Source of the DNA: Escherichia phage ZCEC14
DNA: 64,000 nucleotides
Sequence record: OP168898.1
Reading direction: 5' to 3' (one strand)
Numbering within the stretch: the stretch's first letter is position 1; each line of letters starts with the position of its first letter. Positions 34,953 to 47,718 of the stretch are shown here, piece after piece. The notes beneath the pieces were generated by a model. That model did no database searches. It saw nothing but the letters and a program-made list of their open reading frames with translations, and had not been told where the DNA came from. The translations under genes were made by a program, and so were the position numbers.

Positions 34953-35221
34953 TGTTTGTTGTTCACACTATTTATGAAAATGAAGGTAATACTACACGTG
35001 ATTACGGTCACGTAAATCAATTTTTTAGATGCAATCCAGAATTCCGAGCTCAAAAAGACGAACGAATTTTTAAAAAATGTGTGGAGCAAGGTTTCATTTA
35101 CGTCAAGCATTGGATGCAAGGAAATAAAGTTAGAACTACATATCATAGGTCTTTGACTGAGCTTAATGATGAATTGATTTATAATAGAGCTGTAAACCAA
35201 ACTCTAAAGGATGAACAATGA
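34952..35221 (+). CDS. hypothetical protein, 89 aa
   Basis: TAATG overlap; coupled to the ligase start. Confidence 0.45.
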   Translation: MFVVHTIYENEGNTTRDYGHVNQFFRCNPEFRAQKDERIFKKCVEQGFIYVKHWMQGNKVRTTYHRSLTELNDELIYNRAVNQTLKDEQ

Positions 35222-36678
35222 TTCTTAAAATTCTGAACGAAATAGCATCTATTGGTTCAACTAAGCAGAAGCAAGCAATTCTTGAAAAGAATAAAGATAA
35301 TGAATTGCTTAAACGAGTATATCGTCTGACTTATTCTCGTGGGTTGCAATATTATATCAAGAAATGGCCTAAACCTGGTATTGCTACCCAGAGTTTTGGA
35401 ATGTTGACTCTTACCGATATGCTTGACTTCATTGAATTCACGTTAGCTACTCGGAAATTGACCGGAAATGCGGCAATTGAGGAATTAACTGGATATATCA
35501 CCGATGGTAAAAAGGATGATGTTGAAGTTTTGCGTCGAGTTATGATGCGAGACCTTGAATGTGGTGCTTCAGTATCTATTGCAAACAAAGTTTGGCCAGG
35601 TTTAATTCCTGAACAACCTCAAATGCTGGCAAGTTCTTATGATGAAAAAGGCATTAGTAAGAATATCAAATTTCCAGCCTTTGCACAGTTAAAAGCAGAT
35701 GGAGCTCGGTGTTTTGCTGAAGTTAGAGGTGATGAATTAGATGATGTTCGTCTTTTATCACGAGCTGGTAATGAATATCTAGGATTAGATCTTCTTAAGG
35801 AAGAGTTAATCAAAATGACTGCTGAAGCCCGCCAGATTCATCCAGAAGGTGTGTTAATCGATGGTGAATTGGTATACCATGAGCAAGTTGAAAAGGAGCC
35901 AGAAGGCCTAGATTTTCTTTTTGGCACTCCTGAAATTAGTAAAGCTAAAGAATTCGCCGAAGTAGCTGAATCTCGTACTGCTTCTAATGGAATCGCCAAT
36001 AAATCTTTAAAGGGAACTATTTCAGAAAAAGAAGCACAATGTATGAAGTTTCAGGTCTGGGATTATGTTCCGTTAGTAGAAATATACGGTCTTCCGACGT
36101 TTCGTTTAAAATATGATGTACGTTTTTCTAAACTAGAACAAATGACATCAGGATATGATAAAGTAATTTTAATTGAAAACCAGCTAGTAAATAACCTAGA
36201 TGAAGCTAAGGTAATTTATAAAAAGTATATTGACCAGGGTCTTGAAGGTATTATTCTCAAAAATACCGATGGATTGTGGGAAAATGCTCGTTCAAAAAAT
36301 CTCTATAAATTTAAAGAAGTAATTGATGTTGATTTAAAAATTGTAGGAATTTATCCTCACCGTAAAGACCCTACTAAAGCGGGTGGATTTATTCTTGAAT
36401 CAGAGTGTGGAAAAATTAAAGTCAATGCTGGCTCAGGTTTAAAAGATAAAGCTGGTGTAAAATCGCATGAACTTGACCGTACTCGTATTATGGAAAACCA
36501 AAATTATTATATTGGAAAAATTCTAGAGTGCGAATGCAACGGTTGGTTAAAATCTGACGGCCGCACTGATTACGTTAAATTATTTCTTCCGATTGCGATT
36601 CGTTTACGTGAAGATAAAACTAAAGCTAATACATTCGAAGATGTATTTGGTGATTTTCATGAGGTAACTGGTCTATGA
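35218..36678 (+). CDS. 30: ATP-dependent DNA ligase
   Basis: 486-aa ORF matching recalled T4 DNA ligase; adenylation-site context KADGAR. Confidence 0.95.
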   Translation: MILKILNEIASIGSTKQKQAILEKNKDNELLKRVYRLTYSRGLQYYIKKWPKPGIATQSFGMLTLTDMLDFIEFTLATRKLTGNAAIEELTGYITDGKKDDVEVLRRVMMRDLECGASVSIANKVWPGLIPEQPQMLASSYDEKGISKNIKFPAFAQLKADGARCFAEVRGDELDDVRLLSRAGNEYLGLDLLKEELIKMTAEARQIHPEGVLIDGELVYHEQVEKEPEGLDFLFGTPEISKAKEFAEVAESRTASNGIANKSLKGTISEKEAQCMKFQVWDYVPLVEIYGLPTFRLKYDVRFSKLEQMTSGYDKVILIENQLVNNLDEAKVIYKKYIDQGLEGIILKNTDGLWENARSKNLYKFKEVIDVDLKIVGIYPHRKDPTKAGGFILESECGKIKVNAGSGLKDKAGVKSHELDRTRIMENQNYYIGKILECECNGWLKSDGRTDYVKLFLPIAIRLREDKTKANTFEDVFGDFHEVTGL

Positions 36679-36863
36679 AAGCTTACTTAGAAACAATTGT
36701 TATAGCTCAAAAAGAAGGTGGAGATGTTTCTACTTCTGTATCACAAGTCATTCTCGAATTTGTAGATGCGTATGCTTATAATAAATTTACAGAAACATTT
36801 GATGCCTACGAAAAAGGTCCAAAGTTTGAAATATATCGTACTCTCTTACCATTAGATTATTAA
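36675..36863 (+). CDS. hypothetical protein, 62 aa
   Basis: ATGA overlap with the ligase stop. Confidence 0.4.
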   Translation: MKAYLETIVIAQKEGGDVSTSVSQVILEFVDAYAYNKFTETFDAYEKGPKFEIYRTLLPLDY

Positions 36864-36879
36864 AGGCCTTCGGGCCTTT
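36862..36879 (+). terminator. hairpin terminator
   Basis: AAAGGCC-TTCG-GGCCTTT. Confidence 0.5.
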
Positions 36880-36884
36880 AATTT

Positions 36885-36892
36885 TATAAATA
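36885..36892 (+). promoter_or_regulatory. late promoter (TATAAATA) for the alt genes
   Basis: TATAAATA on the + strand about 20 nt upstream of the alt-1 start. Confidence 0.6.
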
Positions 36893-36915
36893 GAATAAAC
36901 ACTAGAGAGGATATG

Positions 36916-39009
36916 ATGGAACTTATTACAGAATTATTTGACGAAGATACTACTCTTCCGATTACAAACTTAAATCCAAAGAAGAAAATACCGCAAATTT
37001 TTTCAGTTCATGTTGATGATGCAATTGAACAACCAGGCTTTCGTTTATGTACCTATACATCTGGAGGTGATACTAACCGTGATTTAAAGATGGGCGATAA
37101 AATGATGCACATTGTTCCTTTTACACTAACTGCTAAAGGTTCAATTGCTAAATTAAAAGGTCTCGGTCCAAGCCCAATTAATTACATCAATTCAGTTTTT
37201 ACTGTTGCAATGCAAACAATGCGTCAGTATAAAATTGATGCCTGTATGCTTCGTATTCTTAAGTCTAAAACTGCTGGTCAAGCTCGACAAATTCAAGTTA
37301 TTGCTGATAGACTTATCCGTAGTCGTTCAGGTGGCAGATACGTCCTTCTTAAGGAACTCTGGGACTATGATAAAAAGTATGCATATATTCTTATACATCG
37401 CAAAAATGTATCACTAGAAGACATTCCAGGAGTTCCGGAAATTAGTACCGAGCTCTTTACTAAAGTTGAATCGAAGGTCGGCGATGTTTATATCAATAAA
37501 GATACCGGAGCTCAAGTAACTAAAAATGAGGCAATTGCAGCATCTATTGCACAAGAAAATGATAAACGTTCTGACCAAGCTGTTATTGTTAAAGTTAAAA
37601 TTTCCCGTAGAGCAATTGCGCAAAGTCAATCATTAGAATCTTCTAGATTTGAAAGTGAATTATTCCAGAAGTATGAATCTACCGCAGCTAATTTTAATAA
37701 ACCTGCTACCGCTCCTTTAATTCCCGAAGCAGAAGAAATGAAGCTTGGAATTAATTCATTAGCTTCTAAAACTAAGGCAGCAAAAATTATTGCTGAAGGA
37801 ACTGCAAATGAACTTCACTATGACTATAAATTCTTTTCAAAAAGTGAGGTTGATGAAGTTTCTGAAAAAATTAAAGATGTAATTCTTAATGCGATTAAAA
37901 ATGAACCAACTACTTCAATAAAATGTTTAGAGAAATACGCAGCAGCTGTTAATAAATTCTTTGAAGAATATAAAGATAATTGGCTTGATAAACATAATAA
38001 AACCCGTAAAGGACAGCCAGATGAAGTCTGGGAAGAAATAACTAAAAATTCCTGGAACGCAGCAAAAACTAAATTCCTCAAACGAATGATTTATAGTTTT
38101 TCTGGAATTGGTGCAGGTCCAATGATTGATATTACTATTGCCCGTGATGGTTCTAAATATACTCCATCACAAAAGCGCGGCATTAGAGAATATTGTGGAT
38201 CAGGATATACTGACATCAATAATCTTCTTTTAGGCCGCTACAATCCAGAACGATATGATGTAATGAGTGAAAAAGAAATTGAATCTGCGATAAATAATTT
38301 AGATTCAGCTTTTGAAAATGGTGATCGTATACCAGAAGGCATTACAGTTTATCGTGCTCAAAGCATGACTGCTCCTATATACGAAGCACTAGTTAAAAAT
38401 AAAGTGTTCTATTTCAGAAATTTTGTATCTACTTCTTTAACTCCTATCATTTTTGGACGTTTTGGAATTACACATGCTGGTATCGGTCTTTTAGAACCAG
38501 AAGCTCGCAATGAATTAACAGTTGATAAAAATGAAGAAGGAATAACTATTAATCCAAACGAAATAAGAGCGTATAAAGAAAATCCTGAATACGTTAAAGT
38601 TCAAATAGGATGGGCAATTGATGGAGCTCATAAAGTTAATGTTGTATATCCAGGAAGTCTCGGAATAGCAACAGAAGCTGAAGTTATTCTACCGCGCGGA
38701 TTGATGGTCAAAGTTAATAAAATAACTGATGCTTCTAATAATGACGGAACAACATCTAATAATACAAAACTCATTCAAGCTGAAGTTATGACTACGGAAG
38801 AACTCACCGAATCAGTAATTTATGACGGTGACCGTCTAATGGAAACTGGCGAAGTAGTTGCAATGACAGGTGATATTGAAATAGAAGACAGAGTTGACTT
38901 TGCATCATTTGTTTCATCAAATGTTAAACAGAAAGTAGAATCATCTCTTGGAATTATTGCGTCTTGCATAGATATTACAAACATGCCTTACAAGTTCGTT
39001 CAAGGATAA
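36916..39009 (+). CDS. alt: Alt-like ADP-ribosyltransferase, paralog 1 (697 aa)
   Basis: N-terminus MELITELFDE... shared with paralog 2; C-terminal R / STS / ExE-type transferase motifs (YRAQ, FVSTSL, EAEVILPRG). Confidence 0.8.
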   Translation: MELITELFDEDTTLPITNLNPKKKIPQIFSVHVDDAIEQPGFRLCTYTSGGDTNRDLKMGDKMMHIVPFTLTAKGSIAKLKGLGPSPINYINSVFTVAMQTMRQYKIDACMLRILKSKTAGQARQIQVIADRLIRSRSGGRYVLLKELWDYDKKYAYILIHRKNVSLEDIPGVPEISTELFTKVESKVGDVYINKDTGAQVTKNEAIAASIAQENDKRSDQAVIVKVKISRRAIAQSQSLESSRFESELFQKYESTAANFNKPATAPLIPEAEEMKLGINSLASKTKAAKIIAEGTANELHYDYKFFSKSEVDEVSEKIKDVILNAIKNEPTTSIKCLEKYAAAVNKFFEEYKDNWLDKHNKTRKGQPDEVWEEITKNSWNAAKTKFLKRMIYSFSGIGAGPMIDITIARDGSKYTPSQKRGIREYCGSGYTDINNLLLGRYNPERYDVMSEKEIESAINNLDSAFENGDRIPEGITVYRAQSMTAPIYEALVKNKVFYFRNFVSTSLTPIIFGRFGITHAGIGLLEPEARNELTVDKNEEGITINPNEIRAYKENPEYVKVQIGWAIDGAHKVNVVYPGSLGIATEAEVILPRGLMVKVNKITDASNNDGTTSNNTKLIQAEVMTTEELTESVIYDGDRLMETGEVVAMTGDIEIEDRVDFASFVSSNVKQKVESSLGIIASCIDITNMPYKFVQG

Positions 39010-39012
39010 ATC

Positions 39013-41070
39013 ATGGAACTTATTACAGAATTATTTGACGGCGCTTCGGCGCCGGTTGTTAACTTAAATCCTAAGCATAAAATACCTCAAATTTTTGCTA
39101 TTCAAGCCGGCGAAGAAAGCGTGCTTCCTGGATTTAGATTTTGTACATACACCTCTGGTGGTGATACAAATAAAAACGTTAAGCCAGGTGATAAAATGAT
39201 GCATATCGTAATGATAGGTGTCAATGAGAAACTATCATTAGTTAAACTTAAAAACTTGGGTGGAAATCCAATTGGTGTCATTAATGCTGTTTTTGATACT
39301 GCTCTTCAAACAATGAAACAATATAAAATCGACGCATGCCTATTCCGCGTACTAAAAAGTAAAACAAATGGCGCAGCTCGTCAAATGCAAGTTATTGCTG
39401 ACCGTTTAGTACGTACTAAAGGAGCAGGTCGTTATGTTCTTTTAAAGGAAATCTGGGACTATGATAAAAAGTATGCATATATTATGGTTTACCGTAAAAA
39501 TGCCAATTTAGAAGACATTCCAGGTGTACCTCCTATTTCAACTGAGTTATTCACAAAAGTTGAATCGAAGGTCGGTGATGTTTATGTAGACGTTAAAACA
39601 GGTAATGCTGTTCCTAAAGCTGTCGCTGTTGCTGCTTCTATTGCTTTAGAAAATGATAAACGTACTGACCAAGCGGTTATTCAGAAAACTAAAATTAGTC
39701 GTCGATTAGCAGCGCAAGCTCAATATTCTACTGTCGATGCTTCACTTCAGGGTGATAGCTTCGCTGCCAAGAAATATCAAGAGTTTGAATCTAAAGTTCC
39801 GGTATATAAAGCAGAAGGACCAATGAACTCTGGCGTTATTCAGATTGGTTCAAACTTCAGCAAAGGAGCTATCGGTGGTATGAGGAGTGCTTCTCGTTTT
39901 AAATCTAACGATTATGAACTAGAAAACTTCCGAAATCATATTGCATTAGCCCATGCGCGTTTACGTGATCCATCTATCAAGTTGCAGAGCGATATAACAT
40001 ATCAAGGTTCTCAAGAATATTTAAAGAATAAAGAATTCTTTGATTATAAAACTGATAAAATTTTAAGCGATCTTGCTGATATTAATATTTCTAATAGCTT
40101 TGATGTTATTAAGAAAATTATCAATGATTTGGTTAAAGGTTCTAAAGCTACGCCAGATGAAAAGACAGCTATTATTCAATTTGTAATGAATGGCATTTAT
40201 AAATTGATTAATGAATCTGCTGCTCAGGCGTATGAATATGCAAGTACTGAAGTAACTCCAAAAGGATTAACTCAGGCTGAATCTGACGTAATTGAAGATT
40301 ATTGTGCTGATTCATATGTTGAAATGAACTCGTTCCTTTTGGGTAAACCAGATTCTACCCGTGAAGAATATATGGAACGAGCTATTAAACACATCGAGAC
40401 GTTGGATTCTGCCTTTGCCAAAGGATCAGTTCTTCCTCCAGGAACTACGCTTTATCGCGGACAAGAAGTTACATTTAAAACTTTGCGTCATAACATTGAA
40501 AATAAAATGTTCTATTTCAAGAACTTCGTATCCACATCGCTTAAACCAAATATCTTCGGTGAGCATGGTAAAAACTATATGGCTCTAGATGATTCCGGCG
40601 CAGTATTTTCTGGTGAAGGAGAAGGTTCCGTTGATGCAGAAGATTTGATGCATATGGGTAGTCATTCTACATATGCTAATGAAGATGCTGAAACTAGCGT
40701 GGGTATGGTAATTAAAGGAGCTGAACGAATCAAAGTTATCGTTCCAGGTCATTTATCAGGATTTCCATCAGAAGCTGAAGTTATTCTACCACGTGGAATT
40801 TTACTGAAGATTAATAAAGTAAGTACGTACTTTATGAAAGAAACTGCTTATAACAAGTATCTAATCGAAGGTACAATCGTTCCTCCTTCCGAACAATTAG
40901 AAGAATCGGTATATGATGGTGACCATCTGATGGAAACTGGTGAAGTTCGTCCAATGACTGGATTTAACCAATTCCTTGTAGAAGAATCAAAAGAAGAGGA
41001 AAACGAAGTTTCTCAAATCTTGGCTTCTTTGGTTAACATCAACGGAATGTCTAAAAAGTTCAAGATGTAG
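39013..41070 (+). CDS. alt: Alt-like ADP-ribosyltransferase, paralog 2 (685 aa)
   Basis: N-terminus MELITELFDG...; C-terminal motifs YRGQ, FVSTSL, EAEVILPRG; closer to the T4 Alt length (682 aa). Confidence 0.8.
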   Translation: MELITELFDGASAPVVNLNPKHKIPQIFAIQAGEESVLPGFRFCTYTSGGDTNKNVKPGDKMMHIVMIGVNEKLSLVKLKNLGGNPIGVINAVFDTALQTMKQYKIDACLFRVLKSKTNGAARQMQVIADRLVRTKGAGRYVLLKEIWDYDKKYAYIMVYRKNANLEDIPGVPPISTELFTKVESKVGDVYVDVKTGNAVPKAVAVAASIALENDKRTDQAVIQKTKISRRLAAQAQYSTVDASLQGDSFAAKKYQEFESKVPVYKAEGPMNSGVIQIGSNFSKGAIGGMRSASRFKSNDYELENFRNHIALAHARLRDPSIKLQSDITYQGSQEYLKNKEFFDYKTDKILSDLADINISNSFDVIKKIINDLVKGSKATPDEKTAIIQFVMNGIYKLINESAAQAYEYASTEVTPKGLTQAESDVIEDYCADSYVEMNSFLLGKPDSTREEYMERAIKHIETLDSAFAKGSVLPPGTTLYRGQEVTFKTLRHNIENKMFYFKNFVSTSLKPNIFGEHGKNYMALDDSGAVFSGEGEGSVDAEDLMHMGSHSTYANEDAETSVGMVIKGAERIKVIVPGHLSGFPSEAEVILPRGILLKINKVSTYFMKETAYNKYLIEGTIVPPSEQLEESVYDGDHLMETGEVRPMTGFNQFLVEESKEEENEVSQILASLVNINGMSKKFKM

Positions 41071-41123
41071 TTTACAAGTCACTCGTGTTGTGTTATAGTA
41101 GTCTTACTGACATAACATGAGGA
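41070..41123 (+). repeat. promoter-leader repeat family B, copy 2
   Basis: 54 nt identical to 25543-25596; GTTTACA 41070-41076, TATAGT 41094-41099, GAGGA SD. Confidence 0.85.
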
Positions 41124-41130
41124 ACACAAA

Positions 41131-41421
41131 ATGAAATCTTCTTTGCGCTTTTTAGGTCAAGAACTTGTAGTTGAAGGCGTTATTCCTGCTGATAACGCTT
41201 TTAATGAAGCGGTTTACGACGAATTTATCAAAATTTTTGGAACAGATAAAAAGTTTGGAATTTTTCCTTCTGAAAATTTTTCAAAGCCAGAACAGACTGA
41301 AAACATTTTCCAAGGTGTAGTAACAGGTAAATTTGAGTCAGAAGCTCCGGTAAAAATTGAAGTTTATATTGAAGACAGTTTAGTTGCTTCAGTTGCTGCT
41401 TTTATTTCATTCCGTAAATAA
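41131..41421 (+). CDS. hypothetical protein, 96 aa
   Basis: ATG 8 nt after the family B GAGGA. Confidence 0.5.
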   Translation: MKSSLRFLGQELVVEGVIPADNAFNEAVYDEFIKIFGTDKKFGIFPSENFSKPEQTENIFQGVVTGKFESEAPVKIEVYIEDSLVASVAAFISFRK

Positions 41422-41425
41422 AAAC

Positions 41426-41447
41426 ATGGGGACCGAAAGGTCCCCAT
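41426..41447. terminator. bidirectional hairpin terminator between convergent genes
   Basis: ATGGGGACC-GAAA-GGTCCCCAT flanked by A-run upstream and T-rich downstream. Confidence 0.6.
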
Positions 41448-47706: not shown

Positions 47707-47718
47707 TATTTATAAATA
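47707..47718. promoter_or_regulatory. overlapping divergent late promoters (palindrome TATTTATAAATA)
   Basis: TATAAATA on the + strand at 47711-47718 (23 nt before the gene 26 ATG) and on the - strand at 47707-47714 (18 nt before the gene 51 ATG). Confidence 0.6.

Follow-up and report, generated by a model that had tools for sequence, protein, structure and literature searches.

Two intact tandem Alt-type ADP-ribosyltransferase genes at the alt locus of Escherichia phage ZCEC14

The DNA analysed here (hereafter the window) is a stretch of 64,000 nt from Escherichia phage ZCEC14 (OP168898.1), given as one strand, and all positions are window coordinates. It is a Tequatrovirus segment with a DNA identity of about 95-97% to many T2/RB32-like phages, and it securely contains the alt locus of a T2/T6/RB32-like Tequatrovirus with two intact tandem Alt paralogs, alt and alt.-2. 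A sequence-only reading of this DNA had described two adjacent open reading frames (ORFs) of 697 and 685 amino acids (aa) as tandem, diverged Alt-type ADP-ribosyltransferase genes. This description is borne out by pairwise BLASTP, which aligns the two proteins over their full length with 41% identity (E = 9e-159), and by matches of both to PF03496 (ADPrib_exo_Tox; 129 bits for alt and 71.9 bits for alt.-2, with a cut-off of 23.4). Both also match PHROG family phrog_802 ('Alt-like RNA polymerase ADP-ribosyltransferase') from end to end (aa 1-696 of alt, aa 1-685 of alt.-2). We consider it probable that the two genes encode a late, co-transcribed pair of Alt proteins that would be packaged, processed and injected, with exchangeable effectors directed at different targets.

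Both proteins keep the catalytic arginine, the Ser-Thr-Ser motif and the Glu-x-Glu motif (Table 1); the loss of catalytic residues in one copy, which the sequence-only reading had allowed for, is not seen. These residues align with the catalytic residues of CDTa and VIP2. In an alignment of 22 sequences, with relatives 42-96% identical to alt.-2, the catalytic and cleavage residues are invariant. Alt and alt.-2 are both predicted to catalyse NAD-dependent ADP-ribosyl transfer to protein arginine. In the AlphaFold model, made for alt.-2 only (pLDDT 74), the N-domain is of alpha/beta type and the centre is long and helical, while the C-terminal catalytic domain is followed by a disordered tail. 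Foldseek searches with this model retrieved Vis, Certhrax, CDTa, C3 and VIP2 with a probability of 1.0 and E-values down to 2e-6; the target TM-scores are about 0.3-0.66, being highest for single-domain targets (Vis, C3). A sequence search of the PDB returned no solved Alt structure and only weak toxin matches. For the shared 240-aa N-domain (39013-39747, alt.-2 model) no strong solved structural relative was found, the weak matches being GNAT-like. In unrelated myoviruses of Erwinia, Dickeya, Vibrio and Agrobacterium, large uncharacterised proteins begin with a predicted fold like that of the N-domain; some of these proteins carry Zeta-toxin or deaminase domains. Cluster P0001, which is 99% identical, and the alt/alt.-2 hybrids described below are recorded as having the N-domain family PF26846 (Tevenvirinae_ADPRT); this family was not returned in the Pfam scan of the window proteins with a local copy.

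The divergence between the two copies is unevenly distributed. The N-domain covers aa 1-239 in alt and aa 1-238 in alt.-2, where it is followed by the helical centre (aa 239 to about 470), the catalytic domain (about 480-625) and the tail (632-685). Identity between the copies is 68% over aa 1-238, 12% over aa 239-415, 34% over the catalytic region (aa 416-631) and 44% over the C-terminal tail. The shared N- and C-terminal motifs quoted in the sequence-only reading are all visible in the alignments, and so is the divergent centre that it reported. Insertions and deletions cluster in the loops between Ser-Thr-Ser (STS) and Glu-x-Glu (ExE); in C3-like enzymes, the loops between these motifs contact the substrate. 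With most of the differences gathered in the helical centre and the catalytic-domain loops, the two effectors most likely act on different, or partly different, host substrates. At the DNA level, the longest identical runs are all in register: 32 nt at 37358/39452, 28 nt at 36916/39013, 22 nt at 38672/40769 and 20 nt at 37462/39556 (alt/alt.-2). Identical stretches had been noticed before, as several of 25-35 nt; only the first two fall in that range. In 5000 shuffles of codon columns in the N-domain alignment, a longest run of at least 32 nt was reached in 64 and a second-longest run of at least 28 nt in 2, so that the shared runs are somewhat longer than chance.

T4 Alt is a prohead-core protein of 40 copies, cut by the gp21 protease after ITE-6 and LTE-619 (PMC5694885, PMC9026906). 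Both window proteins exhibit the corresponding motifs, ITE-6 in each together with LTE-632 in alt and LEE-631 in alt.-2. The second site (L-x-E/S, the slash marking the cut) is aligned and in register in both, and E6 and E631 are invariant among the relatives in the 22-sequence alignment. The predicted mature products are of about 70.1 kDa (alt) and 69.2 kDa (alt.-2), and the alt.-2 tail past the cleavage site (aa 632-685) is predicted to be disordered. At the level of motifs, these features argue for the processing and packaging of both proteins. Head packaging and injection are known from T4 Alt only, and for alt.-2 late expression is itself deduced. One may therefore ask whether the second protein is not injected, but acts late in the producing cell or serves mainly as a structural part of the prohead core. 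We find this improbable: the MELITE propeptide, both L/I-x-E sites and the shared N-domain are kept, every catalytic residue is kept under purifying selection, and in hybrids headed by the alt N-domain the sole Alt protein bears the alt.-2 effector.

The alt.-2 protein has 99.6% aa identity to RB32 alt.-2. The ratio of nonsynonymous to synonymous substitution rates (dN/dS) against RB32 is 0.014 for alt.-2 and 0.023 for alt (dS about 0.13 for each), values as low as or lower than that of the neighbouring ligase (0.051). Both alt and alt.-2 are under strong purifying selection and are functional genes. RB32 annotates the pair as alt and alt.-2, the latter with the note 'similar to alt', T6 does likewise, and T2 carries both copies too. 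About 396 phage records, of about 500-540 Tequatrovirus-like records, hold alt.-2 at 95% aa identity or higher. In Tequatrovirus the tandem pair is thus ordinary, common and already annotated, and PMC1524935 and PMC4177764 make mention of Alt duplications. The novelty implied by the sequence-only reading does not survive this comparison, both copies being largely universal and near-identical in relatives; the biology is untouched by it.

The T4 record describes alt.-1 and alt.-2 as an old and partial duplication that concerns the beginning of alt. These two ORFs (61 and 67 aa) align to window positions 39013-39360, and T4 resumes at 41051; slur14 exhibits the same remnant. The families phrog_23015 and phrog_15247 match window alt.-2 better than window alt. 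One might suppose from the frameshifted and deleted remnants of T4 and slur14 that the second copy of the window is a pseudogene decaying towards the T4 state. This is already contradicted, and to us hardly credible, in view of an uninterrupted ORF of 685 codons, its dN/dS of 0.014 and some 400 records at 95% aa identity or higher. The state of alt.-2 (intact or remnant) and the allele of alt (682 or 697 aa) occur in all four combinations (T4, slur14, TOPO13 and this window). The copy number at the locus also varies: RB69 has one copy, Dhakavirus WG01 has three, and Aeromonas phage 31 has two full copies plus one partial copy.

The window alt is 70% identical to T4 Alt overall, in a mosaic pattern. 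Its DNA is 95-99% identical to T4 alt in codons 1-240 and in the last 40 codons or so, and 41-73% identical between them; the cassette of centre and catalytic domain is about 50% identical in protein. This cassette finds close relatives in another genus. The alt effector and WG01 ORF200 exhibit an aa identity of 65% in the centre and 95% in the catalytic domain, and the alt.-2 effector pairs with WG01 ORF199 (46% and 58%), whereas the two window effectors are 12% and 34% identical with each other. Window positions 37596-38852 have 80.7% DNA identity to WG01 (L003, 3593-4849), against 64-66% for the flanking ligase and baseplate genes. This likeness points to an exchange of the alt cassette between genera. 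The N-domains follow the opposite pattern, with 63-68% identity within a genome versus 43-47% between genera, and they either stay genome-specific or are homogenised within a genome. Since the effectors pair across genera and the N-domains resemble each other within a genome, the effector cassettes are old lineages, orthologous across genera, that move between genomes.

Recombination between the two genes has left further traces. Four database proteins, 89-96% identical to alt.-2, exhibit alt-type N-termini of differing length. Each hybrid is a single gene that begins with the alt N-domain and continues, in the same reading frame, with the centre and catalytic domain of alt.-2. Two of the contigs run on beyond the hybrid, and there no further alt gene stands between alt.1 and alt.-3; the remaining two stop right behind it. 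The parent-specific sites reveal one clean switch per hybrid contig, and six distinct junctions are found within the shared N-domain (Table 1). The carriers are the isolates ECML-134, SCS4 and PST, together with four metagenome contigs; in ECML-134 and PST, too, the hybrid is the sole alt gene. The ECML-134 junction lies in the 32-nt identical run (39451-39484), SCS4 has the same junction, and that of Yersinia phage PST is at 39306-39316. Judged from these site patterns, the hybrids are the product expected of homologous recombination between tandem paralogs, with a loss of about 2.1 kb, and at least six of the recombinants are independent. Six such joins of an alt N-domain to an alt.-2 effector imply that, in function, either N-domain can stand in for the other. 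Assembly artefacts were considered as a source of the hybrids and rejected in general, given six junctions, three isolate genomes and one contig from a k=99 assembly; at most of the junctions, moreover, the identical run is much shorter than the k-mer used for assembly. Individual short-read hybrid contigs could be chimeric.

These observations can be assembled into the following scheme. A single late promoter (36885) would transcribe alt and alt.-2 together. Each protein would consist of a short N-terminal propeptide, an N-domain of alpha/beta type and about 240 aa, a helical centre, a C3/VIP2-type arginine-specific ADP-ribosyltransferase domain and a C-terminal propeptide. By analogy with T4 Alt, both would be built into the prohead core via the shared N-terminal module, and trimmed by gp21 after Glu6 and after the Leu-x-Glu near 631/632. 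They would be packaged alongside the DNA and enter the next host by injection, where the pair would ADP-ribosylate host proteins before any phage gene expression. The shared N-domain would serve as a head-incorporation or delivery module, and the centre plus catalytic domain as an exchangeable effector cassette, of which two old, separately conserved lineages would be present.

Several points weigh against this scheme. The difference in substrates is deduced only from the location of the divergence, and what marks the late promoter is a consensus match of 8 nt. It is by analogy that the alt.-2 protein may be present in virions, processed, injected and active; literature searches found no functional work on the second paralog, only genomic mentions. 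In addition, T4 and slur14 are without the alt.-2 effector, and ECML-134 and PST without the alt effector. Each effector is therefore dispensable in nature, and partial redundancy is possible. Such losses would suit a second copy that is a redundant duplicate, adding dose of the same injected activity against the same targets as Alt, and so would the common architecture, propeptide and cleavage motifs of the two proteins and their same type of E-x-E motif, which predicts arginine specificity. We nevertheless judge a dosage duplicate unlikely, though it is the most serious of the rival explanations, because the effectors are so little alike (12% in the centre, 34% in the catalytic domain, with insertions and deletions in the STS-ExE loops) and because each lineage is conserved across genera under strong purifying selection, which is unexpected for a simple duplicate.

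The surroundings of the pair are those of the known locus. The gene order ligase - alt.1 - alt - alt.-2 - alt.-3 - gp54 matches RB32 and T6, the pair lying between gene 30/alt.1 and alt.-3/gene 54 and reading towards gene 54; the baseplate genes 54 and 48 follow downstream on the opposite strand. A late promoter before the first copy had been proposed from the letters, and the octamer TATAAATA is indeed present there, directly 3' of a hairpin that is probably the terminator of the upstream gene 30/alt.1 transcript. This hairpin was absent from the list of the consensus terminator scan and was confirmed by folding instead. Upstream of T4 alt, an identical hairpin, the same octamer at the same place and the same double ATG (ATGATGG) are found. 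The octamer alone is weak evidence, since the window contains 17 copies where 8.5 are expected. As the next TATAAATA on the + strand occurs only at 47711, the copy at 36885 would be the sole late promoter for both genes. The alt stop codon (TAA, 39007-39009) is separated by a 3-nt gap from the alt.-2 ATG (39013). With a single TATAAATA, this short gap and an AAGGA of its own for the second gene, one late transcript is the simplest reading, and we infer that alt and alt.-2 are co-transcribed late. The transcript could also reach alt.-3, which lies on the same strand, and would probably end at the terminator between alt.-3 and gene 54. Separately, two overlapping TATAAATA octamers on opposite strands are seen at 47707-47718, possibly divergent late promoters.

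Two adjacent in-frame ATGs (36913-36918) open alt, as in T4. The second (36916) is the likely start, because it follows GAGG by 5 nt and T4 Alt begins with MELITE; it also agrees with ITE-6 as numbered in print. A propeptide of 7 residues, as counted in one review, would fit the first ATG (36913). In the closest record, PP526941.1 (Escherichia phage vB_EcoM_ECO78), alt is labelled 'thymidylate synthase', an apparent mis-annotation. The position of alt.-3 is the same in T4, RB32, RB69 and T6, and mutants of T4 Alt.-3 with a C-terminal extension escape the CmdTAC defence system (PMC11618068). The dN/dS of alt.1 against RB32 is 0.30, compared with 0.01-0.05 for its neighbours, in a small gene with low counts. 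NCBIfam gave no match for any of the four locus proteins, and no hits came from scanning the entire window for tRNAs and Rfam families.

Table 1. Coordinates of genes, motifs, signals and junctions at the alt locus of the window
Feature	Position	Strand	Remarks
DNA ligase gene 30	35218-36678		
alt.1	36675-36863		Pfam 'Phage blade protein'
Hairpin followed by T run	36859-36882	+	core AAAGGCC-TTCG-GGCCTTT; RNA fold -13.5 kcal/mol, z = -3.4
TATAAATA, T4-type late promoter octamer	36885-36892	+	24 nt 5' of alt start codon; function inferred
GAGG, ribosome-binding site of alt	36907-36910	+	read from sequence; 5 nt to ATG 36916, 2 nt to ATG 36913
alt	36916-39009	+	697 aa (698 aa from ATG 36913); PF03496 1.8e-37; phrog_802 1e-272
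alt catalytic R480	38353-38355	+	
alt S505-T-S507	38428-38436	+	
alt E587-A-E589	38674-38682	+	
alt prohead-protease motifs ITE-6 and LTE-632	38809-38811	+	position of LTE E codon
AAGGA, ribosome-binding site of alt.-2	39002-39006	+	within alt 3' end; read from sequence
alt.-2, second Alt paralog	39013-41070	+	685 aa; PF03496 5.8e-20; phrog_802 7e-257
alt/alt.-2 recombination junctions in shared N-domain	39159-39682	+	parent-specific site patterns, L007-L012
Six distinct junctions	39159-68, 39306-16, 39333-36, 39451-84, 39555-76, 39675-82		
alt.-2 catalytic R482	40456-40458	+	
alt.-2 S507-T-S509	40531-40539	+	
alt.-2 E587-A-E589	40771-40779	+	
alt.-2 prohead-protease motifs ITE-6 and LEE-631	40903-40905	+	position of LEE E codon
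T4-early-like promoter 5' of alt.-3	41071-41099	+	GTTTACA, 17 nt, TG-extended TATAGT; consensus match only
alt.-3	41131-41421	+	96 aa; DUF5498, PF17602 at 6e-64
Bidirectional hairpin terminator between alt.-3 and gene 54	41426-41447	both	9 pairs, 6 G-C

Studies of ADP-ribosylation driven by phages have been built on T4 with its 'three ADP-ribosyltransferases' (PMC10468400). T2, T6 and about three quarters of the sequenced Tequatroviruses encode a fourth intact and strongly conserved enzyme, by appearance a packaged one, and the finding matters mainly because the model phage T4 is without an intact alt.-2. We propose tentatively, and at somewhat less than even chances, that alt.-2 adds a fourth ADP-ribosyltransferase to the T-even set, one that is injected, whose targets are unlike those of Alt (defence or translation factors, for example, in place of RNA polymerase alpha), and which was overlooked since T4 lost the gene. 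If alt.-2 is injected and has its own targets, the N-domain of 240 aa common to both proteins would act as a portable module for delivery to the head, the swaps and hybrids demonstrating that effectors are exchangeable; the hybrids further suggest that the N-domain could bring other cargo into the head.

The closest characterised system is T4 Alt (gpAlt, NP_049811), a head-packaged NAD:arginine mono-ADP-ribosyltransferase that modifies Arg265 of RNA polymerase alpha. The window alt is its ortholog, at the same locus behind the same hairpin and TATAAATA, with the same R/STS/ExE residues and ITE-6/LTE cleavage motifs, and with an aa identity of about 99-100% in the first 240 residues and about 90-100% in roughly the last 70. 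It differs from T4 Alt in being another allele (697 versus 682 aa), with only 32% aa identity in the centre and 66% in the catalytic domain. The second gene of the window is the same gene as alt.-2 of RB32, T6 and T2 (e.g. YP_803136, 'Alt-like RNA polymerase ADP-ribosyltransferase; similar to alt'), of the same length and position as in RB32, and differs from it in nothing material. T4 alt.-1/alt.-2 corresponds to the N-terminal 116 codons or so of this second paralog; in T4 the reading frame is shifted near codon 55 and about 1.69 kb, with the entire effector, has been deleted, whereas window alt.-2 is uninterrupted. The Alt arrays of other Straboviridae (WG01, Aeromonas phage 31, RB69) occupy the same ligase-gp54 locus with the same architecture, and vary in copy number. 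T4 ModA and ModB and the C3, VIP2, iota and CDTa toxins have the R-S-E catalytic class and the fold in common with the window pair. ModA and ModB differ from it in being small, early-expressed and not packaged, and the toxins in having neither the phage N-domain nor the propeptides.

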